Of a stretch of 64,000 nt of DNA, positions 1 to 37,204 are shown one piece after another. Where the stretch lies: assembly GCA_051294905.1 (NCBI GenBank), contig CM119371.1, positions 19,036,001-19,100,000 on the forward strand, given 5' to 3'. A program made the position numbers and the translations under genes. The stretch's first letter is position 1; each line of letters opens with the position of its first letter. Source of the DNA: Botryllus schlosseri. Its lineage: Eukaryota. The notes below the pieces were generated by a model that was given only the letters and a program-made list of their open reading frames with translations, had not been told where the DNA came from and did not search any database.

Positions 1-1248
1 TTTCAATACACTCAGATTTTCATCAACGAGTAAACCCATCAAGTACTCTTTGAGACAGTTCAAGTCATACCGGCCGCCATTGAACGATAAAACAGGGATT
101 TGTTTTAAATATCGCATGAGCTCCTCTTGTAAACGTTCAAGTGGTATTTTTTTCTCGGAAGGATCGAGTGCTTTCATTTCGGTAATTTTAGTTTCGAGCA
201 TGCCCAAGTAGTGTTGATATTCCATCTGTAACAACCTAAATGACTCACTTTGAATATCATGAAAATGATCAACCATTTCCGCACACAAGTCGTTTGGGTC
301 GCCGTTCGAGACAATTACATACGGTTCCAAGAACCCTTCCACATTAGAAGATATACTAACGGAAATGGGGATATGTTTACACTCCCATGAAGTTTTGGAG
401 GAATCTGGAATATCACACTTCTCAAACATGCTCTCGATATCAAACGCGATACGGTATTTGAAATAACGAAGCTGGTGGGGAACGAACACCCCTTCTAGAT
501 CGAGTTTTTCAAAAATGTTCAAAGGAGGGCTATACACGCCACCCGGAAACACTTCAACAGGACCCGTTGCACATTTGTGTCTGGTCAATTCATACTGCAA
601 ATTGAAAAATCTTTGACAAACATCACATCGATAGCTCTCCATATATCGCCTCATATCAGTAATTAGGCAGAAATGGTTGCTTTCTAAATGTAAGTACACA
701 GGTTTCCCTTCAAACGTACTACGACGTAGTGCGACAGCTTTACCCTCGGTCTTGGTGTACACGAATATAGCGACATTAAACAAATCCTCGATATCATCCA
801 ACATGTCAAGAGTTACACCAGAATCTACATTGATGCCATATACCGACGTGAATTGTTGAGCCATTGCTTTTGTATCTTTTCCTAGCGAGTGGGCGATACA
901 ACGAAAAGCACACAGATTGTCGTTGTACAGGTTCTTATTTTTTCGACGCAACATTGTCATGATACATCTCGCTCTCGCAAGCCATTTCGGTAGCTTAATA
1001 CCAACACAACCAATCAACACACCATTGGTAGGATATACATATAACCGCGGGTTGATCAGACAGAACGATTGTGAATCACAGAAAACATCCAACCGCTTAC
1101 GATTGCTGACGCAAGTATTGTGCACGTGGCTACTGTTTACTACATACGATTTCACCGCTTGCCAGTTCTGGGGTGTAATTTGTTGGTGTTGGTTGTCGAT
1201 CTCTGGCGTCGCATCCCCATCCCTGTGATTCCACAGACATCGACTCAT
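1..1248 (-). CDS. Protein-primed family B DNA polymerase (pPolB), N-terminal part, runs off the left edge
   Basis: Absent from the ORF track. Hand translation from ATG 1248 puts all these motifs in one frame: DNLCAFRCIA (~895-921) and HLESNHFCLI (~661-690, vOTU-like Cys/His), a CxxC..HxC Zn motif, ExoI IAFDIES (430-450) and ExoII LSFNGGRYDL (61-90). Not every intervening codon was checked. Confidence 0.9.
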   Translation of the reverse strand, partial: MSRCLWNHRDGDATPEIDNQHQQITPQNWQAVKSYVVNSSHVHNTCVSNRKRLDVFCDSQSFCLINPRLYVYPTNGVLIGCVGIKLPKWLARARCIMTMLRRKNKNLYNDNLCAFRCIAHSLGKDTKAMAQQFTSVYGINVDSGVTLDMLDDIEDLFNVAIFVYTKTEGKAVALRRSTFEGKPVYLHLESNHFCLITDMRRYMESYRCDVCQRFFNLQYELTRHKCATGPVEVFPGGVYSPPLNIFEKLDLEGVFVPHQLRYFKYRIAFDIESMFEKCDIPDSSKTSWECKHIPISVSISSNVEGFLEPYVIVSNGDPNDLCAEMVDHFHDIQSESFRLLQMEYQHYLGMLETKITEMKALDPSEKKIPLERLQEELMRYLKQIPVLSFNGGRYDLNCLKEYLMGLLVDENLSVLK

Positions 1249-1606
1249 CTGTAAAATTGATAACGCATGGTTACATTCAACACTCGGTAATATTAAACTA
1301 GTGTTACTTACAATGTGGTTTCTTTTTCGGTGTCTTCCTTGGATCTTTATACTAAACAAGTAACATGTCAAACTATGTCGCTAACATAGTGCTATAGCAG
1401 ATAACTTACCAGTAGACTTGTGTATCCCACTTAATCATTGAGTTCGCTTTGTCTGTTCAACAACAAAATCATTACATCATGCTCACTAGTTCTGTGCAGT
1501 AATAACTCACCGTTTCAATTCTTTAATTCCACGCCTGTTTTGTCTGGGGACTGAATAAATAACAAATTATATTCATAAATCGAAGTATTCACACCGAATA
1601 ACTTAC
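1249..1606 (-). other. Four predicted short GT-AG introns separating 40-43 nt mini-exons upstream of the pPolB ATG
   Basis: Donors GTAAGT/GTGAGT at 1311, 1409, 1510, 1606. Acceptors TTACAG 1249, TTTAG 1352, AACAG 1453, TTCAG 1551. Introns are 56-63 nt. Confidence 0.6.
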
Positions 1607-1961: not shown

Positions 1962-2663
1962 TCAATCAATCAACAAACCATCAGTGGGGTATACGTAAAA
2001 CTGTACATTAGCCAGACAGACCGCCCTGTATTTTGTATCTGGTCGAGAGTCTTGTAACACATCTAGTGCCGTTTCCAATCTTATAGATTCAACAAATTCA
2101 TCGAATTCAGCTAGTGATGTAATCGCTGCTGGGACTTCTAATACGCTATCGACGTTCGCCGATGCATGAAAATACCGAAATCTCCCAGCCGCGATGTTAT
2201 GTAAAATGATTCCATACGCGAAATTCACTTTGAAACGGGTCGACTCTGAGAAAAATATCGCTTGGATATCGCGGAAAACATCCGGTATCTCACGATCGAT
2301 GACTCGGATATTATACACGCGCCGACTCTGATTCACTACATATGATTTTATCGCTTGCCAGTTCTGGGATACAACTTCTTGGTATTGGTCGCCTGTCTCT
2401 GGTGGTGTGTCTTCTTCCTCGCGAACACGACTCCGTCTGCGTCGACTCACAGACTTCGGCCCTACCTGACGCGCTATATCTGCGTGGTTTGGTTGCATTT
2501 CGATCGTGAGGTCGCGTTCTGCGGATTCACCTCTTAAATCCGGTGTCATCAGATCACTAGGATTAATCGCATCAAAGATATCCGCGTTCTCTTCAAATTC
2601 CGATTCGAATGCATTTGGCTCATAACCAAATTTGTCAAGATTATCTATCTGAACCTCGGCCAT
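1962..2663 (-). CDS. Stand-alone homolog of the Polinton pPolB N-terminal (putative terminal protein) domain, 233 aa
   Basis: FKVNFAYGIILHN..RFRYFHAS..RPDTKY..NVQFYVY resembles the N-terminal region of Polinton pPolBs. It is paralogous to the start of the adjacent pPolB ORF. TATAAATA lies ~85 bp upstream on the minus strand. Confidence 0.75.
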   Translation of the reverse strand: MAEVQIDNLDKFGYEPNAFESEFEENADIFDAINPSDLMTPDLRGESAERDLTIEMQPNHADIARQVGPKSVSRRRRSRVREEEDTPPETGDQYQEVVSQNWQAIKSYVVNQSRRVYNIRVIDREIPDVFRDIQAIFFSESTRFKVNFAYGIILHNIAAGRFRYFHASANVDSVLEVPAAITSLAEFDEFVESIRLETALDVLQDSRPDTKYRAVCLANVQFYVYPTDGLLID

Positions 2664-2758
2664 TGTATAATAATTAATCTAATTGCTCCAACCAACGTTT
2701 ATGTCTGCAACAGCGAAGTATAACAACCGGATTGCGGTGTTGGCTATTTATAGATTTA

Positions 2759-4919: not shown

Positions 4920-5175
4920 CAATAGCCGCTCGCCACCCCCGCCATAAGACGAAAACGTTAGCTCGCCACCCCCGCCATAAGAAATAAGAGCCGCTCGCCA
5001 CCCCCGGTTTTCCAGCCGCTCGCCACCCCCGCCATAAGAAATAAGAGCCGCTCACCACCCCCGCCATAAGACGCAATAGCCGCTCACCACCCCCGCCATA
5101 AGAAATAAGAGCCGCTCACCACCCCCGGTTTTCCAGCCCGTCACCACCCCGCCCATAAGAGCCCCTGCCACCCCC
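4920..5175. repeat. Polinton subterminal tandem repeats (~27-31 bp, core GCCGCTC(G/A)CCACCCCCG)
   Basis: About 9 imperfect copies immediately inside the terminus. Confidence 0.9.
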
Positions 5176-5196
5176 AGAGCGATCGACTACACTACT

Positions 5197-5312
5197 TACA
5201 TGCACCCGGTATTCCCAGCCGGTCACCCATGCAAGTACTAACTGAGCCCAACGCCGCTTAACTTCCGAGATCAGACGAGATCGGGTGTATTCAACGTGGT
5301 ATGGTCGTAGGC
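5197..5312 (-). pseudogene. RNA5S: 5S rRNA type A, 3' end cut by the Polinton
   Basis: Lacks the terminal GGC and the oligo-T terminator. Confidence 0.88.
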
Positions 5313-5745
5313 GACAGTGGATACAATCTGTGCCGTTTTACGTGACATTTTTCGTTCATCTCAGGCGAAAAGTCGCCACGCTGCCAACGATGAGACGCCT
5401 GAAAAGCAGATTGTCTGATTGCGCCAAGGCACTTTCGGCCCAATAACTGGAAAGAAAAGTCTGCTAGCGGTCGAATATCATTGGCGTCCTGCTCTGTTCT
5501 TGTATCTGGTCAACAAACACACAAGTAAGCTCTCGCTGTCAGAGTAGTTATTTTATTGCACTTTTCGTCATGTGAAAACAGCACGAGATTTCGATATAAT
5601 GACAATGTGTTAGGCCTAGTATAACTACAAATTGAAATAAGCGGCGGCCAGCAAATGATGACATTTATAGTTGTACGTAGGCCTACGTGCGCATACAAAA
5701 CAGTTGCAATCTAATTGATCGAGTTTGTGCGACAAAAATGCAAAA

Positions 5746-5866
5746 GCCGTCTACTACACACGGTATTCCCAGCCGGTCACCCATGCAAGTACTAACCGGG
5801 CCCAACGTTTCTTGACTTCCGAGATCGGACGAGATCGGGTATATTCAACGTGGTATGGTCGTAGGC
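5746..5866 (-). rRNA. RNA5S: 5S rRNA type C
   Basis: GCCTACGACC...GTAGTAGACGGC then TTTT. Confidence 0.85.
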
Positions 5867-7695
5867 AAGTGTGGTTACCAATTCTGACGTTTTATGTGAC
5901 AATTTCCGTCGACAGCCGCCAGAAAAGCAGATTGTCTGATTGCGCTGGGGCATTTTCAACCCGTCTGCCAGCGTTCGAATATCGTTGGCATCCTGCTCTG
6001 TTCTTGTATCTTGTGGACAAACACACAATTAAGCTCTCGCTGTCAGAGTAGTTATTTTATTGTACTTTCTGTCATGTCAAAACAGTACGAGAGTTTGATA
6101 TAATGAAAATGTGTTAGGCCGATTACAATTCCAAATTTCGCGCGATAGTTCATTTGAAAATAAGGAACTAGTGAACTATATGCCCGCTTCACTCGTGTGA
6201 ATGATTGACGTCATCTATCATGTTTCCCCATGATCATTTAATTCAATCTCCTTGTTTATGCTATCACTTATTCTTTTTTCTTCTTGTTCTCTCGTTTTTC
6301 CGCACGAGATAGAAAAATGCTGACTCGGCATTTTTTCTAGTTACGACGTTTCAGTTTTGTCCGTTTGCTCCCATTAAAGGGATTTTTGTCCGTTCACCCT
6401 TATTATATCACATATTTACACTCTGCCAAAAGCAGCTTTACATCTTTTGTATGATCGTGGGTGGTATAGGGCCTTCGCACAACACCACTTCTTGTACGTT
6501 TGATTGCAGCAGCACGAGCCCTTTATTCCTTATATCGGCTGCTTTCATACAAATTACCACATTCCTTGTTTTGCTTCTCTTCGTTATCGTTTTGCTCAAA
6601 TGAACGAATCTCCTGTTCATTCGTTCAATGCCTGCTGACATTATCTGTCTTGCATTGTTTTCAGTCGTCATGTGGGTACAATATCTCGTTACCTTCATAT
6701 TTACAGTATTGAGGAGGCGTCCCCTTTGTATGTCCATGGGCGGCCTCCAATCCATTTTTCGAGACTATTGCTCTGTCGCACCTTTTCATGACGTACGTGA
6801 TTTCTTCAATTCTCATTTGCATCCCCATTTTCTTTCTAATGACGCCGCAAATTCCTTCCCAGGGATGATATCCATCCACTGAGTCATTACAAAGATCATG
6901 GCGATGATGAGACTCTTGAGTTCCGTCTTAACGCTTGGACTGGTCCCTTGTTGCGGTAACTTGGCCAGCCATTGGCTAATGGGAATCTCGTGATGAACGG
7001 GGTTCTGTGTTTGGTGGAGAGAGGGCGAGGTCCTTCGATGTAGGCCTCTGATGTCGGTGCGTGCCCGCACCTACCGTCACGCCGACGGACTCCTTTTCCG
7101 CCGGGAACTCTTTTTCTGGGGAGACGTGCATCCTAAAATCCCCAGACTCCTTGTCGGACATGACCGGGTGTGTATCCGGTTGACCGGCAATCGCTGCTTC
7201 GTTTGAACCTTTTGGGAAAGTACTCATTACTGTGGCTGTCGTCATGCATCTATGGGCCGATTCATTAAGGTTATTCGGACAAGTGCATCCACGAAAGCAT
7301 TTAGGACCAGTTTTCTCGTGCAGGTCTTTATTTTCGCCAGCGGGGATTCCACGCTCGACGTCTTCATTAACGGTGTTAGCAGGCATTCCTGTCTCAACAC
7401 CAATAGTTTCCCATGGGTTCTGTGTGACGTTAGTTGCTATTTTCAACTCGTCGTTCGCACCAGTGGTGATTACCATCTCGGTACTTGCGCCAGCGGCAAC
7501 GGCCAGCGGCGACGGCTAGCGTGCCGGCTCGACGCTTATTTGATTTGCAGCTTCCATCAACCCCATCATCGGTTACAGTGTCGCGAGGACTGCTTCCGAC
7601 TTTGGTTCCGTCCCGTTGATCTCATGAGATCCCATCATGTAGAGTTACTAAAGACAACTCTTCAATCGCATTAGACGGTGTTTTCAACCCAATTA

Positions 7696-7974
7696 CTATG
7701 CTTGGTAATTGCTGTACTTGTTCAATGGAACGGACATACCATCAAAATTAATCTCTACCAAGGAATCAACTTGGGACGAGCCACCTATTCCTGTCAATTC
7801 CATGTCTATTGGTTGACGTTCCTCCCAGCTTTGTGGGTATTTAGTAATAACGACCTTTTTCATTATCAAATTGGGGATGCTTCCCGTGTCAGCTAGGAAT
7901 TTCGAACCCGTTATTGTATCAATCAAATACAACAATTGGCCTCCGAACAATTCCGTAAATCGGGCTGTAATGGG
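7696..7974 (-). pseudogene. Retropepsin-like aspartic protease remnant
   Basis: KFLADTGSIPNLI catalytic motif and LTGIGGS flap, downstream of gag in another frame, bounded by stops. Confidence 0.75.
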
Positions 7975-8078
7975 TCATCCGGCGTATCAAGAAATGTAAA
8001 TAAGGGTAAAGAAGAGTTATGTACAGTTTTTGTGTGTTTGGGGTAATAAATTATCTGGGAGCTGATTTACCGGATCAA

Positions 8079-9938
8079 TCAGCTCCCGCAAGCGATCGAG
8101 AGTCGAATACCTTGATTCAGTTCATCATCCGTCCAATATGAAGCATCATATCGACGTGGATGATCAGGGTATTGAGGTTCCGCCCAAGTCACTTGGCTAT
8201 TACCTCGGGACGAGTGTGCAGGCGGTAAAGATGGCTTTGTGTCACGCACTTCCTTTGTTTCCTGGTTCCTAGGGCGCGTCTCTTGTTCATCCAGAAACTC
8301 GGAGTTACAGACGAGTTGTAGTTCCTCCGCAACGTCCCGCCAGGTTTTCTCTTCTTCCCAGCCTCGTAACATCAGTCTGAGCGCTTCTGGAAGTCGTTGT
8401 CGTAAATTTCGGAAAAGACGCAATCCATCCGGATTATCCTCAATAAGACTATCCATGTCTATTTCTAGTTGCTTCAAAGCGCTATTCAGCATAGGTAGCG
8501 GCTCTTCCTCCCAGCGATAATTTCTGCGGAAATCCCCAATGATCTTTTCATCATTTACCAAACCCTGGGGATTGGATAAGGAAAGGGATCGCATCACCGA
8601 TTCCCATTCTGCTTCCCCCGAATTGGTATTAAAAAAATTTCCCAGTTGAGTAGCCTGCTTGTGTCTGTCAGCCGCCCGCAATTTCTTCTGCATCGCATTA
8701 GCCAATATAACATCCACATCCGTATTCCCGGAACCGTGGCGTATTCGTCGCATCGAATTTTCCATCCACTTTAGCAGTGGCATGTCCCCAGGATCCATCA
8801 TAAGCTGAAGCATTTCTTTTTCTGATTGGATTTTAACAGGCACGTTGAGCATTGGGACCGTAACACCGGGATATTGGTGCGGCTGTTGTTGGCCTGACCG
8901 TCTGCTACGATCGTTAGGAGTAGAGGTAAAACGAGGCATATTTGGATAAATCGGGTTGTTAGGTCGGCCCTCATCCGTATCTTCAACCGACGAATTTTCG
9001 GAACTTCGTAGAGACTTCCCAATCTCCTTTATTTCTCGTGCCAATAATCGCATACGAGCATCGTAATCGTCGTCTCCAGTGTCTTCCGCATCTTTTCTAG
9101 TATCACCCTGTTCTTGGAAGGTCACCCGTCGGGATTCGCCATCCGCACTTCCCGCTCGTCTTCGAGAATCCTTCTCCTCGTTACGACGTTCCTGCCATCC
9201 TCGATACCCCATATATTTATCTAAGGGATTCTTTTTTGGTTTTGACGCAACGGGGGGCTCGAGCTCGTTCCCCCCAAGTCTAATGAAGCTTGGCATTTCC
9301 ACGGGGTTTTGCTTATTCTGTTTGGCGCGTGCACCACTTCCCACGTGGAAGCATGTTGCCGTTCCCATTCGAGAGTCTGACAACGAGGTCGAGTCAGAAC
9401 GTGGTAGCTTAGGATAGACGGCCGTTACAGTATGACAATCCAGACCCTTGCGAACCGTCATCGTTGGTCCTTGTTTTACGTTACCAGACGGCTGCTCAGT
9501 GAGAGGAACGTAAGCCGGAGGGTCATATTCTGGTGCAGTTGGAGCTACTGTCAAAACGGGAGATTGGATGCTATCTCGTGTAGCCTGTGCATGCGACTTT
9601 CCGAGCTCAAATTCTGACGTAAGGATGTCATTCAGAACGTCGGTGGAGACCTTCCCGCTAACTTTTGTTGTGGCATCGCAAACAGCTTTGAGGTCCGCTT
9701 GAGCTTTTCGAACCTCTTTCTTTGCCTTTTCTAACCCTTTCATGGTCCCCGGTAGAGCTGTCTTTACTTCTTTTAATAGCTCCGTTTGTTCAGCCACATC
9801 TTTAGCAAGTTGTCTTTCTTGTCGCCGTACATCTTCATGGCGTTTTTGTGTTGCTTTAAGCAAGGTAATGCCCTGTTTAAGTTCATTTGTCGCTTCTGAC
9901 GACCTTTTCCTTTTAAATGCTTTCAATATTCTTCGCAT
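8079..9938 (-). CDS. gag: Gag-like protein, 619 aa, of LTR retroelement origin
   Basis: Lies between a PBS and a protease. Basic N-terminus, coiled coil, PTAP/PPAY/YPKL motifs and a capsid-like helical region (LKWME..EWESVM..RLPEALRLML..TWRDV). No CCHC knuckle. Confidence 0.75.
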   Translation of the reverse strand: MRRILKAFKRKRSSEATNELKQGITLLKATQKRHEDVRRQERQLAKDVAEQTELLKEVKTALPGTMKGLEKAKKEVRKAQADLKAVCDATTKVSGKVSTDVLNDILTSEFELGKSHAQATRDSIQSPVLTVAPTAPEYDPPAYVPLTEQPSGNVKQGPTMTVRKGLDCHTVTAVYPKLPRSDSTSLSDSRMGTATCFHVGSGARAKQNKQNPVEMPSFIRLGGNELEPPVASKPKKNPLDKYMGYRGWQERRNEEKDSRRRAGSADGESRRVTFQEQGDTRKDAEDTGDDDYDARMRLLAREIKEIGKSLRSSENSSVEDTDEGRPNNPIYPNMPRFTSTPNDRSRRSGQQQPHQYPGVTVPMLNVPVKIQSEKEMLQLMMDPGDMPLLKWMENSMRRIRHGSGNTDVDVILANAMQKKLRAADRHKQATQLGNFFNTNSGEAEWESVMRSLSLSNPQGLVNDEKIIGDFRRNYRWEEEPLPMLNSALKQLEIDMDSLIEDNPDGLRLFRNLRQRLPEALRLMLRGWEEEKTWRDVAEELQLVCNSEFLDEQETRPRNQETKEVRDTKPSLPPAHSSRGNSQVTWAEPQYPDHPRRYDASYWTDDELNQGIRLSIACGS

Positions 9939-9946
9939 AGTACTCT

Positions 9947-10213
9947 CTATTGACTAGAGGAAGTACTGTTGACAAATATTAGATCAGGCAAGGATGCGTT
10001 GAAAAAGACTGTAGGTCCTGGCGGCGTATTCGTGGTTTTGACGTAAGCAGTGGGTTCGCTGCTATTTGATCCCAAAAATACGTTCAACAGATTAGAAAAC
10101 GCTCCAGGCGATACGTGCAGATAAATTGCTGCCAATATTATCAGGAGAGATACAGACGAGGAAAGCAAGGATACAACAAGTACAAGTTTTACGATAGTCG
10201 TCTTAGAAAGCAT
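9947..10213 (-). CDS. Small predicted single-pass membrane protein, 88 aa, upstream of gag
   Basis: ATG 28 nt after the PBS, long hydrophobic N-terminal segment, three N-x-S/T sequons; stops 8 nt before the gag ATG. Confidence 0.55.
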   Translation of the reverse strand: MLSKTTIVKLVLVVSLLSSSVSLLIILAAIYLHVSPGAFSNLLNVFLGSNSSEPTAYVKTTNTPPGPTVFFNASLPDLIFVNSTSSSQ

Positions 10214-10240
10214 CGATTGGTCAACGTCTTAGCACCGGAA

Positions 10241-10260
10241 GATCCCCGTACTGGCCACCA
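10241..10260 (-). promoter_or_regulatory. Primer binding site complementary to the tRNA-Ile(AAU) 3' end
   Basis: Minus strand TGGTGGCCAGTACGGGGATC. The plus strand GATCCCCGTACTGGCCACCA matches, from memory, the 3' end of metazoan tRNA-Ile including CCA. Confidence 0.8.
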
Positions 10261-12459
10261 ATTTTGTTTTTATATTGCAGCTCCACAACGATTGTTATGC
10301 GAGTAGTCCACACTTGTTCGGGTTACTTCCTAGTAAAGCGTTGCCTTTCGTTTGCTTTAGTATCTTGACGACGTCTGTAAATGGTGATTGGAGCAACAAA
10401 AGTTGTAGGATTGTTTCTTCTCAAGTTGACAATGACCCTGGGGTCCAGAATTTTAATCTACCCTTATCTACTGATAATCTAGAACCTTAATACAACCAAA
10501 TACTCCAATCATTATCAACCAATTATGGACACAAAAATAGGGCGCTTCTATAAATATCGTCCCGCACGGGTCTATCAGAATACGAGTAAAAGCTAGGCCT
10601 ATAAATATGTCATGCATGATTGATAACTTTTCAATACTCCAAGGTTAGTTTACACATATAAATGTGAAGGCCTTTCCTGCCTCGACACACAAGCATATGC
10701 AATATACAAGAAACATGCCAATAGATGTTACAAAAAATACACTCAGAGTTCAAGTTGACCAACTTGCAGACTCGTGTATTATAAGAGTTCTCCAGTCTTC
10801 CAGCTGCAGGTATAGAACCGAAAGCAGTCCAGAAACCGACCCCTTGTTGAGTACTTTACATCATCAAGTACTTTCGTGTCGATTCGGGGATCGGGCATTC
10901 CAACAGAAGGCGGCGTTTGTTGAGGGTTCGTCGTAGGCAGAGATTCCGAATGCAATATCTCTATACTCTTGGCTCTTTTCATCTTTAGTTCATCGACTTC
11001 ATGGAGCTATTCCAGCACATTTCATTTGGCTTCTCCATTTCTGTATACTTTGCAACTTCGGCTAGCAGTCAATCCCATTTTATTGCACTGCTTTATTTCT
11101 GTATACTTTGCAACTGTGGCAAGCAGCCGATCCAATCATTATAAGGTCAAGAGCTTCCAGGGGGACATGCGAACATCACCCTTCAATGCCGAAAGACTTT
11201 AGAACCTCCCGCAATCAATCGTCAATATACTGTTTTGTGGATATAGTCTGATACTGGATGCTTCGTTTTGGGCTGTGTTTCGAGAGTGCTGGACTGCTGG
11301 TGGCTTTACATTGGTAGAGCCAGAAATTAGCCAACACTAGAGGACACATTCATGATGTCTGCATTGGTAGTCATTGGATATTACAACTGAATGTACAATT
11401 CATGTGGGCACCATACATGGCATGGATATGCAATATGCATACACACATGTATTACATACACTTCAGCTCACTGCAAAAGTTCGCATACATGGAAAAATGG
11501 TGGCGCCATTTTCGGTAAAGCAACCTGATGGTATAGCTAACTACTAACATGCATACGACAATTCCAGATAAGCACAAAGTGCTATCAACACAACGGCTAA
11601 ATCTACAAAGCATATTCGACTGTTCATTCAATAACCCATGCGCGAATTCGAAATACAAAATGGCGGCATTTTTGTTAACTCAACACGATAGTGAGTATCG
11701 GCAATTATAAAGTTCGAACACGTTCTGTTAATTTAGCGTTGACGCAATCGATCTCATGAAACGAAAGCGTGAACCCTGGGACTCAATATTCGACACATCA
11801 ATTTCGCAAAAACTGATGTGTGTATTTTTCTATTGTATCTAAGAATTTTTGTTTTTAATTCTATTGAGAGTTATTTAGGGTGATTATATCTGTTGCTTAC
11901 GCAACGGCAATTCTTCTTACTAACGGCTCATATGGGCAGCCTCATGACTACAGAAGTCACCTCTATTTTTTCGGTTACTATAATTCCTTACCTTAACAAT
12001 TTGGAGGGGCAGTGTAGGCATTCTCTGAAATATAAGATTTGCAGTGCCTATAGTTGAGAGCTTAAATTTACGACCTTTTACTTTGTATAGCTACAATCCC
12101 TGAAGCGCGGATTTATGCATTTGAAACTCAGTGACAATGCGGCTCGTTTTGGAAAGGCACGAACTCACACCGGCGTTTCCACGCTATTGAATTGTGAACA
12201 GTCCACCGTATTATATTTATGTTAGCATCTTGGCACATAAGGGAGGCTTGAGAACGGTACGACTTTGATAGTCGTAGCTTTCACACATTAAAGCGGATCA
12301 ATAAATTCGTAGCTCATCAAATTTCAACGTACACAAACTAGAATAGTTGCGCCTCAATGTAGGAATCGTCACATACATATGACTAGCGCATTCCTAACTT
12401 TCAAGTCCTTTTTCTAGATAGGGCGTCTTGCGCAAAGTCGTTATTGTTCAACAATTATC

Positions 12460-12494
12460 CGGCCCGCAACGTAATATGAGTTTGACACCCCTGG
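12460..12494 (-). repeat. Isolated hAT/Charlie-type MITE end
   Basis: Reverse complement CAGGGGTGTCAAACTC...GCGGGCCGG; partner end not found. Confidence 0.4.
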
Positions 12495-14453
12495 GAGTTG
12501 TCTATGCGGCTCGGACCTCATTGTCGCAAATACTTGGCGTTGAATTATTGTGCCAAAGTGCCTAAATTAGGACACGACGAAGCAAGCTATACGCAAAAGC
12601 ACAGCTAATGTTTTAGAACTTTAGACTAAGTGAAAAAAACCAATTGACCTTTAATATCAGTGTGCCAAAGTTTGAGTGTCCGGTGTGTTATAATCATGAA
12701 CTTATTTGCGGGAACATGCACAGATTATACCAGAAGCCTGATATATACTCCATTCCGAATCGAATCACTCACATACTTGATATGGACCAGCCCTAATCAC
12801 AAGTCATTGCGATGACCGGTAATGCCGAAGAATATAAGTATCACGGATTAACGTATTCATTTTATTTCCGCAATGTACGCATTAATCTTAGTAACAGTCG
12901 TGATGCTTGAGATCACTTGCGACTGCATGGTGACATGGCATCTGTCCTATAAAACTATAAACCTAGCATAGAACCCAGTAGTTTGCCACAGGCTAAATCG
13001 AATCCCCCAGTGTGGCGATTCCAACCGATACGCTGCAATGCGTCATATTATGCCATTGCAAGCAATGCCCAAAAGGATATTGGAATCAGATGCCAAAATC
13101 ATACGGCGAAGATGCCATTTTCAGTTTATATGTAAGGAACAGCTATAATAGCAAAAGGTGTCGACAGCAGGCTGATACCATAAATCATAAAATTCCAGAC
13201 CTACTGTCATTATGTGCCGCAAATAATTGTATTTGCAAACGTCTTTAGCAGGGATTGGCAGTACTTTAATAGACACAGGCAAAATTATGAGTGAGCGAGT
13301 GTTTGGCGGGCCGAAATTTTATTGTGTGGTATATTTTATGCTTATATCAGTATATTATACTATCTGATGCAATCTCAATCATCCCAACCGCAAGACACAA
13401 GCATTTATACTTCAGCAACGCAGAATGAATGCAATAATTGGTGCAGCTTGCTTTACGAGAGATCATCAACTTCTGACAATAGGTCAGGTGAAGCAAGAGT
13501 CAGACCATATTCCATATAGGCTTCCCAAATTCGTGATATTAGCTTGTTCTTTCATAATTTTGGTGTTCAAAACTATTGATCACATGCGTATATATAATAC
13601 TAAAATCAATGTAATCTTGTTTGCATTATTGGTCACTTGGCAAGGATAGATTTAAGGACGTACTCTCTATAGTGATGTGCTCCTTGTGTTGTTTTTGTCA
13701 TTAATTTCTACTGCATAGCCTTTCCGAAGGCTCACTTTATTTTTACAGACCAGTTATTTAGCGTTTATATTGAGTTAGTAACGAGTGTTTTAAAATTTAT
13801 TTGGTATGGTAGAGGTGTCAATGAAGCGAGTGATTATAATTAAGTCTCATATCATATTTATAAATGCCACGTTGATTTTCTCTCTCCCCTTTATAGGAAA
13901 GTGAGCATCAGTTTCTTTGTACTGTCAAGGTTTTCCTAGGCGCCGATTTAATTAGAATAAGTCTATATTTCTCATATATCCAGTTGTTATACCCAAAGTA
14001 GCAAATTCTAGTTGTTCAGATGTGACACTTAAAAGTGTTAGAAGATTAAGATGAGATACCTATTTTTTTGTAAAATTATTAGTCTGAGATGTTTATAGTT
14101 CAAGCAAAGTTGCCGTTTTATTTCACAGCTCATTACTCCATGCAAGTATAGCTACTTGATTTAATACGCGAACAGGGAATATATTCATCCTTTCGTTCTA
14201 TTGATTCAATGCTTCTGGTTACCAGCATAACATTGATGGCGATTCAGTTAGAGAGACAGAATTATTTTAAAATTGTTTTTCATTCCACTCGATTAGTCAG
14301 CACTGATGTATTATATTCCGCCCAGATATTCTTCATCACCTATTTCAACCTTTTTTGTTCTATGACGTCCATTTGTATGATAAAATGGTGGTCATGATCT
14401 TTTCTCATCAAAGTATTGGGCCAGGTGATTTCTCGTGAGGGGTCGGATACAGC

Positions 14454-14656
14454 CAGTGTTGGGATCAAGTCACTACCCTCGAGTCACGAGTCATCTCGAG
14501 CCATTGCACATCCTAACTCGAGTCAAGTCAAGCCAACCGATTCCTGAAGGTGACTCGAGTCAAGCCAAGTCACTCGTTTTTTGGAGGTGACTCGAGTCAA
14601 GTCGAGCCAAGTCAAGCCAAGCCACGAAAAAGTCGACCCGAGTCTTCCCAACACTG
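14454..14656. mobile_element. hAT-type MITE, 203 bp
   Basis: TIR CAGTGTTGGGA/TCCCAACACTG, perfect 8-bp TSD GATACAGC, internal GACTCGAGTC/CAAGT motifs. Confidence 0.9.
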
Positions 14657-17600
14657 GATACAGCCCCTGCCTATAGCTATGTGGCATAGGATCATACAAC
14701 TGATAACATCACGTATCAACGAGGGTTTTAATATCTTAGGTGACTTACCAAGAGACAATTAATTTGCTAAAACAAATTAAAAACGACCATCATTAAATGT
14801 CGTAATGCTATTGTCTATAAGATTTGACTAACTTGTCATTAATCTTAGTCAACTTCTTTTCAAACCCTGCTAGCTTTCTAGACTCTTCATGCTGTTCAGC
14901 TCTGTGTAGGGTGAACTGAATTTTCTGTTCTTACGCTTCGAGTTATATTCAGTTATGAGCGGAAGATCGTTGACATGCCTGCATCCGCCCCCCATCTTTA
15001 CGAGCGATAAATTATTTTCGGAAAGTAGGGACTGACGCACATCCGAACATTCATCAAGCAAAATTTTGTCGCTATCATTTGTACTACGGCGTGACTAAAC
15101 CACCCACTGCAATCAAATTTCACCATTTTGCTGCAGTTAATTATTTCCTATGAGTCAATCTACCCCTGCAACGTTTCCTTTCCCACCGCCTTCTGCAAAA
15201 TTATTTTGCAAAAGTTTCGCAATTTGATTCCAAATTCGCATATTGACGCATTACATAAACAGCACTTGGCTCTGTTACCCAATCCGCAACTTCCTTAGTT
15301 ACATCAATTATTTTTTCTCTTGTTATGCAATTCGTAGTTTTGCTAGTTATGTAATTCTTAATTTTACTTATTACGCAATTCACATTTTTTTTCTTATTCT
15401 GCAATTCGCATTTGTGCTTGTTACGCAAGTCGCAATCTTCGGCCAGTTCGCGCGAATTAAATTTACTTTCCACAGACTTAACCAGGGCCGAAATCAGAAA
15501 AAAACTTCTCCATTTTTAAAAACCCGATGTTATACTTGTAACAGTCACTGTTAACTCCCTAGCGCCCGAAACTACTAAAACCTACTTCGTTCAAAACGTG
15601 GTTTTTCGTGTATATAGTGTAGTTATCATCATATGTGTATGATTTTGACTCACAATATCGTCCTTTCACACATTATTAGTCAATCCAAGTTCTACAATTT
15701 AGCGGAAAACACTCCTGTTTGGGGCAAGTTGTCCGCAGAATCTGTCACGAGGTTCAGTAACTTCTCAAAGGGTCGTAAGGAGGTTAGGACTTGGGTATCT
15801 CTAACCACGCCACCATCGCCAATCGAAAGACAGCGAGCAACAAACCGGTGGGCTCGACAGCGGTAATCACCCACGGAATGCTAGGCGACTGAACCCTTCC
15901 TTGCCACGTAACATTTAGGTACAAAGCCCCTTCTGTCGAGCACCATAATACAACATCAATTACCAAGGTAGACTAATTCAGTAGGCTAATGGTGTTGTTA
16001 TTTATCCGTTCCAATATTCGAAGATAAATCTATATTTAGACTTCAATAGATTTTGGTGAACATTAAATCTTTCCACGGCCGCAAAACTTCAACGCGACAG
16101 AACCCACTATGCGCGACGCAACCGCACGCCCGCACTAATCCGCCGTCACACAACCCCGACAATCCATGCCAAGTGCAACTACCCCTCTATTCAGCTATTC
16201 CAAAATGTACCTTTTTCTCGTGACAGGCGCAAATGTTGCTATAGTACATAATACATTTACAATGTGTGTGGAATCTGCACAGTTCAAATTCAAAATATGG
16301 TCGACACCACGCATATTAATTCTAGTTATTGTTATTGTAAAACCATGTACTTTTTTGCCTAAACTGCAAAGGGTAAGTTGTTGATAGTTCGCATTCTACC
16401 ATTTTGAGCTATACTACTTTATGGCCTTTCAACAGAATACCTATTCATAACTGCCTGCACCGCACAAGAGATTTCCGGCAATTTTTGTGGAAATCGGTAC
16501 TTTAATTCAATTATTGATCTTACGCGCAGTCGTGACTGGTGCTATGTACATACTGTTTTGTTACTGACATATGTCAGAATTACCACTCTTCTTTGTGTAC
16601 TCGAATGCACGATGTAGCGCATTGTGTAATGCAATTTACTTACACTAAACCAAAGCCGCGAAACAAGCGGTATTCACTTCGTGTCGTTAGACAGCAGTAG
16701 TTGTAAAAACCAAATTGACAGAAGTGTTGGAAAATCAACTCACCCGACACAAAAACCTACCCACTGGTTCCGAAATATCTAATGCAAATGGTGATGCGGT
16801 ATGCACGCATAACCACCTGCATTCATGCAGCTTACAACACCGACCATGATAACAATTTAGAATTGCTGTTAATACTTTTTGGCCACAACTATTCACTCGC
16901 TAGCCAATAGTTAGAATTCACGAGTTACTGATAAAGCAGTAAGTTACCGAATGTTTGGGGGACCAGTATGGTAGACATTGGTGGGGTTACTTCTTAGTCA
17001 CTTGGGCAATTAAATTAACGACTATTAGTTCAGCGGGCCTTTCAAGATTTTTCTATTTATTAGCATATTCGTCAAGCAAAGTCCGCTGCAACAGATATAT
17101 TTTCCGTGAGCATTCAAAGCTAGTGTTTTCCGTAACTTTGCGGTTTGTTAGATCACGCAATTCTACATTATAATGTCAGCTAATTTCAATTTGGATTCAA
17201 AAGTGCACATTCCCACTGTGTGCGTTCACCTTTGACCAAAAGTGATCGTCAGACTGTGGTGTGAACACACACGTCTTCATAGATATGCCATTCCAATAAC
17301 GTGCATATTGCGTAGCTTTGTACTGAATGCTTAATATGTTGCGATGTGGAAAATGGAGGTTTCAAAGCTTCCATAGTTGAAAATAATATCGCTCAGACGG
17401 TAGACAGACATAAAATTAGCACCAACAATCTCCCCCACCTTCAAGAAATACAATTATTAATTCATTAGTTCAATTATTTCGTCTTTATTATTGACGATTT
17501 TAATTTGTCCTGCAAAGCAATAGCTGTTATTTACGTTTACTGGTTATTACGACGAGTAACACCCCTAATATATTTTCTAGTACTGTTTTTGCAGTACTTG

Positions 17601-18640
17601 GACCAACTCGATATTCTCAGCACTATGTTATGTGCTGTGGTCGTTGCGAATAGTATTATTATTATTATTTGGTCCCTGGTCTAATCGTCGCAAATATTAT
17701 GTTCGCAGTTGGCGTCCAGCTCTCCGTCACGTCGTTTCGGCCCAATGTTGTTGGAACATTCTGGCCATCCCCTGACGAAATGAATCTGGTTAATTTGGTA
17801 CTTACCTTCCGACCTTGATCTCGGGTATGATAGTCCGCCCTGGTGCTGAAGTGTTTCTTGCTTGTGACGTAGTTGTTCGTTTCGATTTTTCTGGCCACTT
17901 GTATTGTGTCAGGCACTTCGTCATGGTGTTGAGTTGTTGTTACGAGACGATTGATTACACGGATTGGTTGCGTATAGGGCTCAGTTTCGAACGTATTGCG
18001 CACCCGCGCTTTTAATACTGGACTTGACATTCTACGTAGCTCGGTCAGAACCGGGGTATCAATTTGGGATGATTTTATTCTACCAGAACTGAGCGGTCCA
18101 GACGATAGAACCGCGGCTGGAACCATGATCGCTACAATAGCACCGCTTGTGGCTCGAATATTGACGTTTTGGTCTATTTTGTTCAGGTGTCTCATCGGAA
18201 ATGCTTGTGGTGTTTATTCGTGTGACATTTGTGTACTGCCCCTGACGGGACCAAGCGCAGTACATTGTATGTCCTTCTTTGACGGCCTGCGTAGATATGC
18301 GTAGGCAAACAGCACAACACGTGTGGACTATCAGATCCCTACCGCCATGTGCGGGGCTAACGTCGTTTTTCTCGACAACTCATAACTCTACGATTCTCTC
18401 CCATTTGATCCCGTGCTATTCATATGGCAGGGTGGTTTTTTTCACTTGTTCCTTACTAGACCTAGCGATTCTTCCACCCTTAATTCAATGTATATGTGCA
18501 ACACTTCCAATCCTACAACACACCCACTTTCTGATGCAACAACTATTGCCGTAGTAATCTCCGGGTACTTATTTCACTAGTACCGAAAATAAAGCACAGC
18601 AATCGAATTGATCGAGTTTGTGCGGAAAAAAAATGCAAAA

Positions 18641-36055: not shown

Positions 36056-37204
36056 GGTTGCCAGTAAACTCGCCCCAAAGTAAATTCGGCCCGTCGAATT
36101 CGGCCCTCGGTCACTTTGGCCGTCGGTGAATTCGGCCGTCGGTAAATTCGGCCGTCGGTAAATTCGGCCCTCGGTAAATTCGGCCAGGGCCAGAGTAACA
36201 ATAACAGTTACAATACCATTACCTGACCTGAACCCTAACCCTAATCCTAACCTAACTCTAATCCTAACCTAACCCTAATCCTAACCTAACCCTACTCTTA
36301 ACCGAACCCTAATCCTAACCCTAATCCTAACGTAACCCTAATCCTAACCTAACCTAACCCTAATCCTAACCCTAACATAATGCAAACCCTAACGCTAATC
36401 CTAACCCTAAACGTAACCCCTAACCTCCAAATCACTTGATAATATTATAATTATGTAATATAATACACATTATTAGTTATTAGGTTTAGGGTTAGGATTA
36501 GCGTTAGGGTTAGGATTAGGGTTAGGATTAGGATTAGGGTTAGGATTAGGGTTAGGTCAGGTTAGGATCAGGGTTAGGTTAGGATTAAGGTTAGGTTAGG
36601 ATTAGGGTTAGGTTAGGATTAGGGTTAGGGTTAGATTAGGGTTAGGTTAGAATTAGGATTAGTGTTAGGGTTCAGGTTAGATAATATTATAATTATGTAA
36701 TATAATACACATTATTAGTTCGTAATACAATTTCACACAATGTTCTCCGAGGGCCGAATATACCGATTGAATTCGGCTGTCGGTAAATTCGGCCCCGTAA
36801 ACATCGGCATATATATATACATATATATATTTATGCGCATACCCTGTTCCCCAAATCACTTGATAATAATATAATTATGAAATTAATTCACATTAATAGT
36901 TGGTAATACATTTTTATAAAAAATTCTCCGAGGGCAGAATTGACCAAGTAACCAGTGAATTGACCGGTGAATTCGGCCGTCGGTAAATTCGGTCCCCGTG
37001 AATATCCGCGCTATCTCCCGTGATTACGCGATCTACGCATACCCTGACATCCAAATCACTTAATAATAGTATAATTATGTAATTAATTCATGTTAACGGT
37101 TGGTAATACATCTTAATACAATATTCTAGGTGGGCCGAATTTACTGATGTAATGGCCGAATTTGCCTGGGCCGAATTTACTTTGGGGCGAGTTTACTGGC
37201 AACC
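36056..37204. mobile_element. Non-autonomous TIR element with internal tandem and telomere-like repeats
   Basis: 37-bp perfect TIR GGTTGCCAGTAAACTCGCCCCAAAGTAAATTCGGCCC, 8-bp TSD TCAAATTG, 15-bp AAATTCGGCCGTCGG repeats. Confidence 0.92.
36221..36680. repeat. Degenerate telomere-like arrays: (CCCTAA/CCTAA)n 36221-36426, then (TTAGGG/TTAGG)n 36480-36680
   Basis: Seen directly. Confidence 0.9.

Follow-up and report, generated by a model that had tools for sequence, protein, structure and literature searches.

Which kind of mobile element would place a tRNA primer-binding site (PBS), a small open reading frame (ORF) for a membrane protein and a gag gene with putative budding motifs one directly after another? 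The question is raised by a 64,000-nucleotide (nt) stretch of the Botryllus schlosseri genome (GenBank assembly GCA_051294905.1, contig CM119371.1, positions 19,036,001 to 19,100,000 of the forward strand), termed here the window; coordinates count from its first base, and features lie on its minus strand, unless stated otherwise. A preliminary description of the same DNA assigned these features to a source element that buds from membranes and that may use a small membrane protein, encoded 5' of gag by an ORF termed here the sORF, instead of a 3' env. Its inventory is accurate: the PBS, the 88-amino-acid (aa) ORF between PBS and gag, the basic start of Gag and the PTAP, PPAY and YPKL motifs are all present where it placed them:

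10241..10260, minus strand: PBS, TGGTGGCCAGTACGGGGATC, complementary to the 3' end of host tRNA-Ile(AAT) plus CCA at 20/20 positions
9947..10213, minus strand: sORF, 88 aa, a predicted membrane glycoprotein whose stop codon lies 8 nt before the gag ATG
8079..9938, minus strand: short Gag, 619 aa, starting MRRILKAFKRKR, with a basic N-terminus, a helical region, a late-domain cluster and a capsid-like core
9405..9542, minus strand: late-domain cluster, with PTAP at Gag residue 133 (9531-9542), PPAY at 140 (9510-9521) and YPKL at 175 (9405-9416)
8280..8834, minus strand: predicted capsid-like, two-lobed helical core, Gag residues about 369-553

The setting, however, is not that of a long terminal repeat (LTR) retrotransposon: there are no LTRs and no integrase, and the PBS lies 8.3 kb inside an element that is bounded by terminal inverted repeats (TIRs) and flanked by 8-bp duplications. 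The sORF and gag are probably the 5' genes of a retrovirus-like module within a giant chimeric mobile element, one that would be reverse-transcribed, would bud and would be inserted in the manner of Merlin transposons. The family has the anatomy and the sequence conservation described below, an insertion signature of transposase type, and primer sites that track three different host tRNAs; from these the connection of reverse transcription to integration by a transposase is inferred.

The limits of the element follow from comparison with five sister copies. Because homology to them spans 6164 to about 18588, where it stops, the element is 12.4 kb long and its PBS lies 8.3 kb from its 5' end (the corresponding distance in full-length copies is 32 kb). 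Its ends and their surroundings are as follows:

6164..18584, minus strand: the whole mobile element, a 12.4-kb internally deleted, non-autonomous copy of a family of about 40 kb
18585..18592, no strand: target-site duplication (TSD) on the 5' side of the element, GAAAATAA on the plus strand, with the same 8 bases at 6156-6163
6156..6163, no strand: TSD on the 3' side, the same 8 bases as at 18585..18592
18563..18584, minus strand: 5' TIR, GGTACTAGTGAAATAAGTACCC, starting 5'-GG, with the same terminus in 15/15 copies
6164..6185, minus strand: 3' TIR, ...GGGCATATAGTTCACTAGTTCC, an imperfect inverted repeat of the 5' end
18233..18562, minus strand: 5' subterminal region, 74% identical to positions 205-550 of a 39-kb copy (described below) and including a remnant of its first transposase ORF
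6268..6295, minus strand: purine-rich tract, found in the 39-kb copy as well, that lies about 110 nt from the 3' end

The window element starts GGTACTAGTGAAAT and ends CACTAGTTCC, and its two termini match as inverted repeats at 15/22 positions (counted by eye from the printed ends). The terminal motif is shared with another subfamily, whose end lies at L028:5803-5812, and no internal copies of it were found. Direct repeats flank all 15 copies of which both ends were read, that is, six short and nine long copies (eight of the latter measure 39.0-51.6 kb, and the ends of the ninth, at C10:14.6 Mb, were paired by hand). These repeats are 8 bp long in 14 copies and 9 bp in one, rather than the 4-6 bp typical of LTR elements; they all differ from copy to copy and adjoin GGTACT...TAGTTCC termini. 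Searches with the two terminal 400-nt stretches gave paired end matches 39.0-40.3 kb apart at seven places, 12.1-13.9 kb apart at nine places, and 35-52 kb apart for a few pairs, the distances being worked out by hand from the match tables. Neither terminal nor PBS-adjacent LTR-like direct repeats were found in the window copy, or in the 39-kb copy and its relatives, by self-comparison and by self-BLAST down to a word size of 7-9. The purine-rich tract near the 3' end is a possible candidate for a plus-strand primer site. Near its 5' end the 39-kb copy has a purine tract of retrovirus-like kind, which was also considered and was rejected; it is absent from the window copy.

What the window copy derives from is apparent from its relatives. 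In the 495 Mb of genome searched there are at least 73 matches to the window Gag, and in most relatives Gag measures about 947-964 aa and contains a CCHC knuckle, while a Pol of about 1200 aa comes next, in the -1 frame. From loci L039-L042, L029 and L030 one copy of 39 kb was read, with ORFs of at least 150 aa taken as genes and scanned with Pfam. All of these genes lie on one strand, in the following order:

39-kb copy, 1: DDE1, an IS1595/Merlin-type transposase ORF, 255 nt inside the 5' end
39-kb copy, 2: a glycoprotein ORF broken by one in-frame stop (475 + 383 aa)
39-kb copy, 3: an ORF of 1167 aa, whose start resembles a signal peptide and which has a C-terminal anchor
39-kb copy, 4: 9.6 kb without ORFs
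39-kb copy, 5: a run of ORFs including a leucine-rich repeat protein, DDE2 (with its own ATG), a BIR-BIR-RING inhibitor of apoptosis protein and a UQ_con E2
39-kb copy, 6: a non-coding leader of 1.1 kb
39-kb copy, 7: PBS, sORF, gag and pol, then 276 nt to the 3' end

In a second subfamily (L027/L028) the order is gag, pol, DDE1, an intact 872-aa glycoprotein and a 1047-aa glycoprotein, and then the same terminal motif. Besides its two transposases a full-length element has more than 20 ORFs, gag-pol-env included, and its base composition is a mosaic, with 42-48% GC in the blocks of retro and env genes and 33-39% in the middle.

The transposases place the ends of this element in a known superfamily. 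PF12762 (DDE_Tnp_IS1595) is found in two ORFs per full-length copy at 40-67 bits (cut-off 27), and the transposase gene has 116 matches in the genome; DDE1 and DDE2 are 42-43% identical to each other, and they retain the cysteines of the zinc finger as well as the DET, TD and TN.IE blocks. In the available part of the relevant source, Merlin elements are defined by a DDE_Tnp_IS1595 domain, a terminal 5'-GG and TSDs of 8-9 bp (PMC8101967). All three occur here: the IS1595 domain, 5'-GG termini in 15/15 copies and TSDs of 8-9 bp in 15/15. The conserved N-terminus of DDE1 lies upstream of its first ATG in both subfamilies; in the second subfamily DDE1 is in the same frame as pol, after a single TAG (L027:8337-8339), and in both a polypyrimidine-CAG acceptor-like site occurs just 5' of the conserved part (L039:463-520). 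An ORF that lacks an ATG, follows pol in frame after a TAG and has an acceptor-like site upstream therefore suggests expression by readthrough or splicing.

Compared with the 39-kb copy, the window copy retains both ends, part of the ORF-free middle, the leader, the sORF, a shortened gag, a protease (PR) remnant and the 3' end of pol. Two internal deletions have removed about 970 nt of gag and about 1.8 kb of pol, the latter containing the reverse transcriptase (RT) and RNase H:

8214..8226, minus strand: gag deletion junction, about 970 nt gone relative to the full-length form
7696..7974, minus strand: protease remnant with an LADTGS motif, in a frame that differs from that of gag
6913..6956, minus strand: junction of the pol deletion that took out about 1.8 kb, RT and RNase H included
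6438..6764, minus strand: Tpt1/KptA-like domain, a C-terminal remnant of Pol assigned by sequence comparison

Both breakpoints are common to nine of the ten short-Gag loci. The short Gag is without three parts of the 947-aa form (Pro-rich linker, CCHC knuckle and post-knuckle domain), and the window copy has other bases where full-length copies have the slippery AAAAAAC. It has no RT, no env and no transposase beyond a remnant; it would be non-autonomous, keeping its sORF and short Gag under purifying selection, and would have to be mobilised by full-length relatives.

Two observations concern the middle of the element. A segment of about 1 kb (13743-14790) is present in the window copy, in sister L034 and, in part, in sister L036, and is absent from three other sisters; it is a polymorphic insertion or deletion within the element. 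The ORF-free region of the 39-kb copy (L039:7664 to L040:7294, about 9.6 kb) is partly kept in short copies, in the window at about 12423-15223, and this retained region may be cis-acting or may specify a non-coding RNA.

Whether an element with such ends also passes through reverse transcription can be asked of its primer site. The match between PBS and tRNA was obtained by a pattern search of the genome followed by ARAGORN on the tRNA genes. Counts of copies here and below refer to 24 distinct genomic copies (26 rows, two places being present twice), and in 20 of the 24 a 17-nt stretch of the PBS is retained. At the same position two other subfamilies carry 18-nt complements of tRNA-Thr(CGT) and of a tRNA called Ser(ACT) by ARAGORN. 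Active tRNA priming yields switches of primer in which perfect complementarity is kept. Because the primer sites of the three subfamilies each match a different host tRNA, reverse transcription appears to be in use.

The gag-pol region adds to this. In full-length copies gag and pol overlap by 66 nt; pol is in the -1 frame, and the overlap contains the slippery heptamer A AAA AAC. Along Pol there are a protease motif, DTGS, and, by Pfam, RVT_1, RNase H and, at the C-terminus, a Tpt1/KptA domain. The last of these, PF01885, scores 43.3 bits against a cut-off of 26, and Tpt1 chains of the PDB match it at E 5e-7. A retroviral integrase (rve, PF00665) was not found by Pfam in any ORF of full-length copies. 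Foreign relatives of Pol and of Gag were compared as protein sequences: among 5.8 billion proteins the six nearest Pols are 35-46% identical and all lack rve; four of them carry PF01885 (in precomputed Pfam annotation) and a fifth, P0005, also aligns across the domain. Match scores then fall from 258 to 106 bits, and what follows are ordinary Ty3/gypsy Pols, 44 of 57 with an integrase, at no more than 28% identity. In the viral and metagenome contig collections searched there were no relatives of either Gag or Pol. That reverse transcription is part of the element's cycle is argued, beyond the primer sites, by the recurrence of this integrase-less Pol lineage in other data sets, by the slippery heptamer kept in the gag-pol overlap, and by gag being kept under selection in deletion copies that lack RT and transposase (see below), where a protein acting only in trans, or not at all, would not be expected to persist.

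The Tpt1-like domain (L023:8091-8618; window 6438-6764, minus strand) is possibly a new accessory activity of a retroelement Pol. The catalytic tetrad of Tpt1/KptA is Arg-His-Arg-Arg; the domain retains RH as a pair, as well as the Arg in R..(V/I)H(L/F), and the Arg before GHS/GHT is replaced in 8/8 aligned sequences that have the domain.

The Gag-like identity of the 619-aa protein is supported by what surrounds it in relatives: a position directly 5' of a PR-RT-RNaseH pol, a -1 slippery site and a CCHC knuckle. Pfam gave no significant family for the window Gag, the sORF or the PR remnant, with weak matches of Gag to coiled-coil families. The knuckle is absent from the window Gag, having been deleted; in the 947-aa relatives it scores 20.5 bits with PF00098, just under the cut-off of 20.8, and it rises above the cut-off in five of the 31 distant Gag relatives scanned. 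A word-indexed search found three relatives and a profile search of 1.84 billion representatives found 42; the 31 of these 42 that were scanned with Pfam contain no known Gag or capsid (CA) family, so that there is no sequence bridge to known capsids, and the Gag family appears to be small and isolated. A PDB sequence search with the Gag profile likewise matched the knuckle only, at E 0.12. Among nine copies that share the same deletions, the ratio of nonsynonymous to synonymous substitution (dN/dS) of gag is 0.18-0.31 in 33 of 36 pairs, with dS 0.08-0.49; the remaining three pairs are nearly identical.

All three types of late motif in the window Gag had been proposed to serve membrane budding, and two of them are conserved. 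PPAY is invariant in 24/24 copies, and YP[KT]L is present in 23/24, the remaining copy having YPAI; P[TS]AP is found in only seven of the 24, the others having PNAP, PDAP or ATAP, so that within this genome conservation does not extend to the third type. The motifs sit in a Pro/Ser/Thr-rich linker whose flanks vary. In foreign relatives of 30-60% identity or less they recur at the same place, after the N-terminal helical region: PPAY and YPKL in P0001; PTAP, PPSY and YPIL in P0002; PTAP, PPEY and YPKL in P0067; PPSY, PTAP and LYPNL in P0080; YPVL in P0076; and LYPALTL in P0003 (P0087 has no late motifs).

Structure prediction was brought to bear on whether the protein contains a capsid fold. 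An AlphaFold2 (AF2) model of window Gag residues 346-560, built from 11 sequences, has eleven helices and a predicted local distance difference test score (pLDDT) of 67.7. Against the PDB, Foldseek returned nothing for this model at E <= 0.001. In a VIA-align comparison with 48,161 chains, 18 of the 50 listed rows are retroelement capsids--among them copia, murine leukaemia virus (MLV), foamy virus (PFV), Mason-Pfizer monkey virus (M-PMV), HERV-K, PNMA2, Arc, PEG10, MOAP1 and the Ty1-derived Drt2--with Z 4.8-6.5, which is below the tool's caution line for helical proteins; several of these matches span both lobes (copia over 156 aa, MLV over 169 aa). The best match in BFVD is a retroviral Gag (E 0.1, probability 0.94), and nine of the 50 listed rows are Gag or coat proteins of reverse-transcribing viruses. 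The enrichment of capsids among the matches gives moderate support to a predicted resemblance of the Gag core to retroelement capsids; a capsid fold is favoured by these two comparisons, weakly, and not by the Foldseek search.

The sORF is likewise conserved in relatives: it is open in 24/24 copies, at a length of 88-111 aa. Its product has one strong hydrophobic segment (residues 10-28, Kyte-Doolittle 2.64) and, in the window, three sequons (NSS, NAS and NST). Over the first 36 codons, which comprise a short basic N-terminus and the anchor, dN/dS is 0-0.54 in the 23 computable pairs and 0.16-0.29 between subfamilies, where synonymous sites are near saturation; these values indicate purifying selection. 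The tail is Ser/Thr/Pro/Asn-rich and barely alignable, with NxS/T always present. Since the positive-inside rule and a 22-residue hydrophobic core point to a type II anchor with the glycosylated tail outside, the product is probably a single-pass type II membrane glycoprotein.

The sORF and Gag are probably translated from one RNA, since the layout fits leaky scanning. The sORF ATG has a pyrimidine at -3, a weak Kozak context, and the gag ATG has a purine there in 22/24 rows (the two divergent loci, L031 and L033, have T). Between sORF ATG and gag ATG lie 272-377 nt, with no further ATG in 21 copies and one in three, compared with 3.5-5.2 expected from shuffles (per-copy P 0.004-0.08). Short single-pass membrane proteins or glycoproteins are made by enveloped viruses from shared mRNAs, by leaky scanning or alternative starts, and have roles in release or host antagonism; pneumovirus SH (which is type II and N-glycosylated), HIV-1 Vpu and MLV glyco-Gag are examples. 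By analogy, the architecture of the sORF product resembles that of these small accessory proteins, from which it differs in having no Pfam match and in being encoded by a separate ORF 5' of gag, an unusual position.

The family also has a much larger candidate for the envelope. In the second subfamily the 872-aa ORF encodes a signal peptide, 14 sequons and 16 cysteines; an R-x-K/R-R at residue 512, followed directly by a 19-residue hydrophobic segment; helix-prone, heptad-like sequence suggesting long helices; and a C-terminal anchor with a Cys-rich tail. It has, in other words, the sequence features of a class I fusion glycoprotein, none of which occurs in the window, and it is a candidate for a furin-cleaved, fusion-type Env. 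Relatives encode a second large type I glycoprotein of 1047-1167 aa; PDB sequence searches with the two glycoproteins matched nothing meaningful. In the ESM Atlas the nearest entries to the 872-aa ORF are clusters of coronavirus S2 and of paramyxovirus F, which share 184-187 of 256 features with it and score 0.88-0.89, short of the 0.9 line, a pointer to class I fusion proteins that serves as a lead only. With its late motifs conserved and an envelope-type glycoprotein gene in the family, a Gag-like protein that buds from membranes in particles, as first proposed, is a reasonable reading of the source element.

According to the reading preferred here, Gag would recruit NEDD4-type ligases and ALIX (and TSG101 where PTAP is present) and would bud enveloped particles bearing the Env candidate; the genome would be copied by tRNA-primed reverse transcription; and the DNA would be inserted by a Merlin-type transposase in place of a retroviral integrase. 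More tentatively, the family may constitute a new class, namely a reverse-transcribing, enveloped virus-like element in which LTRs and integrase have been exchanged for inverted repeats and a Merlin-type transposase; at present this is to be held as doubtful. One version of such a cycle runs through a circle. An integrated copy would be released as, or copied into, circular DNA in which the ends abut; a longer-than-genome RNA would be transcribed from the circle (as in pararetroviruses), packaged by Gag and reverse-transcribed from a host tRNA; and the new DNA would be inserted by the transposase with 8-bp duplications. In the circle, the ATG-less DDE1 and env would end up downstream of pol and of the leader promoter, which is their order in the second subfamily, and from this order DDE1 and env could be expressed by readthrough or splicing. 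There were no circle-junction reads in one raw single-cell RNA run and three contig runs mapped to the full-length gag-pol stretch.

Several points weigh against this account. Every step of the life cycle is inferred from sequence and, with neither LTRs nor demonstrated terminal redundancy, the regeneration of both inverted-repeat ends is unexplained. PTAP varies within the genome; the capsid match is weak, given its Z values and the null result of Foldseek; the AF2 model of the Env candidate is poor (pLDDT 45.7, from three sequences), and this protein has one sequence relative only. The Tpt1-like domain lacks one of the four catalytic residues. In the raw single-cell RNA run the depth over full-length gag-pol is 0-0.4x, with a small sense signal near the 3' end; the three contig runs, which are of uncertain kind, covered the entire stretch. 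Finally, cut-and-paste DNA transposons, too, typically give rise to internally deleted derivatives in which both ends are kept.

The last two points are also what would be seen if the element were a giant Merlin transposon that moves purely by cut-and-paste and carries as cargo an old LTR-less, integrase-less retrovirus-like piece, of which gag, sORF and PBS would be leftovers. TIRs, 8-bp TSDs and two transposase genes suffice for DNA transposition, and the GC mosaic, with its distinct retro and env blocks, speaks for this reading as well. This is nevertheless rather unlikely: without priming, 18-20-nt matches to three host tRNAs at one site would be hard to keep, or to switch; purifying selection acts on gag and sORF even where a copy has neither RT nor transposase; the integrase-less, Tpt1-bearing Pol represents a lineage found in other data sets as well; and in one subfamily DDE1 follows pol in frame after a single TAG, with no ATG before its conserved N-terminus. 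A narrower doubt concerns the Pro-rich motifs of Gag, which might bind WW or SH3 domains in ubiquitination, trafficking or turnover, or might be a by-product of a Pro-rich linker, rather than act as late domains that engage the endosomal sorting complexes required for transport. Their placement in a Pro/Ser/Thr-rich linker and the drift of PTAP to PNAP, PDAP and ATAP would fit, but an invariant PPAY and a nearly invariant YPxL between variable flanks, the same types of motif at the same place in relatives as distant as 30-60% identity or less, and the presence of envelope-type genes in the family make this improbable.

The sORF invites two other interpretations. It could be a mere regulatory upstream ORF that tunes the translation of gag and whose peptide has no function of its own; a stop codon 8 nt before the gag ATG, a weak start context and an ATG-free region are typical of translational control. 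Such an ORF would hardly show a dN/dS of 0-0.3 over its first 36 codons between subfamilies with synonymous sites near saturation, a conserved hydrophobic anchor, NxS/T sites retained in otherwise unalignable tails, and a length held at 88-111 aa in all 24 copies, so that this interpretation is very improbable. Less credible still, and indeed scarcely tenable, is the earlier suggestion that the small 5' glycoprotein serves as envelope or fusion protein instead of a 3' env. What spoke for it was a conserved, membrane-anchored, glycosylatable protein, predicted to be co-expressed with gag, in a copy that has no env. However, the window copy lost both large glycoproteins by deletion; its relatives have the 872-aa glycoprotein (with furin site, fusion-peptide-like segment and anchor), which lies 3' of pol in one subfamily, as well as the second glycoprotein of 1047-1167 aa; and the ectodomain of the small protein, of about 58 aa, is variable, Ser/Thr/Asn-rich and devoid of fusion-protein features. 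Because the relatives have env, the substitution of a small protein for it is unsupported.

The reading of a reverse-transcribing, budding and Merlin-inserted element can be set against known systems. The nearest precedent in logic is Teratorn of teleost fish, described in the available parts of two sources as an alloherpesvirus genome within piggyBac-like transposon ends, with transposase, envelope and capsid genes and host-like cargo (PMC6431247, PMC10175614); in its accessible text a review from 2023 presents it as the first case of a DNA virus fused with a cut-and-paste transposon (PMC10175614). The likeness is that of a giant element with a virus genome inside the inverted repeats of a cut-and-paste DDE transposon; as far as these parts of the sources go, Teratorn combines a DNA virus with piggyBac and measures 41-182 kb, whereas the present family combines a retrovirus-like module with Merlin/IS1595 and measures 40 kb. 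With Merlin/IS1595 elements, as characterized in the available part of the source, the family shares an IS1595 domain with an N-terminal zinc finger, 5'-GG termini and 8-9-bp TSDs; by the same partial account the IS1595 family carries a single transposase gene and one Merlin family has a single extra ORF (PMC8101967). The present family differs from what is described there in its size of 39-40 kb, in its two diverged transposases and in its more than 20 other ORFs, gag-pol-env among them. Burro, a giant gypsy-like element of planarians (>30 kb), has, in the part of the source at hand, env homology and BIR-type anti-apoptosis domains (PMC6431247); it is described there with LTRs and a PR-RT-RH-IN Pol, whereas this family has neither LTRs nor an integrase and ends in transposon TIRs.

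With Ty3/gypsy elements of the errantivirus type and with vertebrate retroviruses the family shares a tRNA PBS, a CCHC gag, a -1 frameshift, a DTG protease, an RT with RNase H of the RT_RNaseH_2 type, a furin- and fusion-peptide-bearing env, and late motifs in Gag. It differs from them in having no LTRs and no rve, in duplications of 8 bp rather than 4-6 bp, in its additional Tpt1-like domain and in its 40-kb size, and identity to the integrase-bearing Ty3/gypsy Pols does not exceed 28%. Reverse transcription without a retroviral integrase occurs in DIRS, Ngaro and VIPER elements, in Caulimoviridae and in Hepadnaviridae; caulimoviruses also have a tRNA primer, a zinc-knuckle coat protein and no LTRs. 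Elements of the DIRS type use a tyrosine recombinase and have split or inverted repeats, in contrast to the DDE transposase and the precise TIR and TSD insertions found here, and pararetroviruses exist as episomal circles without a dedicated integration enzyme, unlike this family.

In the searchable full-text literature, which does not cover subscription journals or Repbase reports, no reverse-transcriptase element with a Merlin/IS1595 transposase and no Tpt1 domain in a retroelement Pol is described. LTRs together with a retroviral integrase are what defines retroviruses and LTR elements; to our knowledge, tyrosine recombinases or nucleases serve in the exceptions. In this family a retroviral core is kept that looks functional (a switching tRNA primer site, gag with late motifs, a frameshift to PR-RT-RNaseH, and env), and yet the element inserts in the manner of Merlin; at 40 kb, and with host-like anti-apoptosis and ubiquitin cargo, it would be a reverse-transcribing counterpart of Teratorn. 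If the reading is correct, the integration module of a retroelement can be replaced by a cut-and-paste transposase, and it would have to be asked, concretely, how an element without LTRs restores its ends.

There remain observations on the leader and on the surroundings of the window element. In one full-length copy RNA reads pile up to very great depth in the leader region at L023:1337-1670, and loose ends flank about 1418-1481; this peak is probably a short repeat that is common to an abundant, unrelated transcript. The element is inserted in a large tandem array of 5S ribosomal DNA (rDNA) that continues on both sides (5193-6163 and 18593-61120). The insertion lies 48 bp from a 5S gene, and the bases of the TSD occur once in the uninterrupted 5S rDNA repeat unit. 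The window has 70 Rfam matches to 5S_rRNA, every one on the minus strand; the repeat that holds them measures about 1023 bp and includes two 5S variants.

At one edge of the window two related ORFs, at 1-1380 (minus strand; 460 aa, open at the window edge) and 1962-2678 (minus strand; 238 aa), have a 71-nt repeat in common; Pfam gave a weak C2H2 match only, and by eye the motifs of the 460-aa ORF recall the exonuclease part of the protein-primed DNA polymerases of Polinton type. Tandem GC-rich 32-nt units with a CCACCCCCGCCATAAGA core occupy 4924-5160 and adjoin the edge of the 5S array. Within the array, a CCCTAA-type block at 36231-36426 is followed at 36480-36680 by a TTAGGG block: interstitial telomere-like sequence, arranged head to head between two blocks of 5S repeats.

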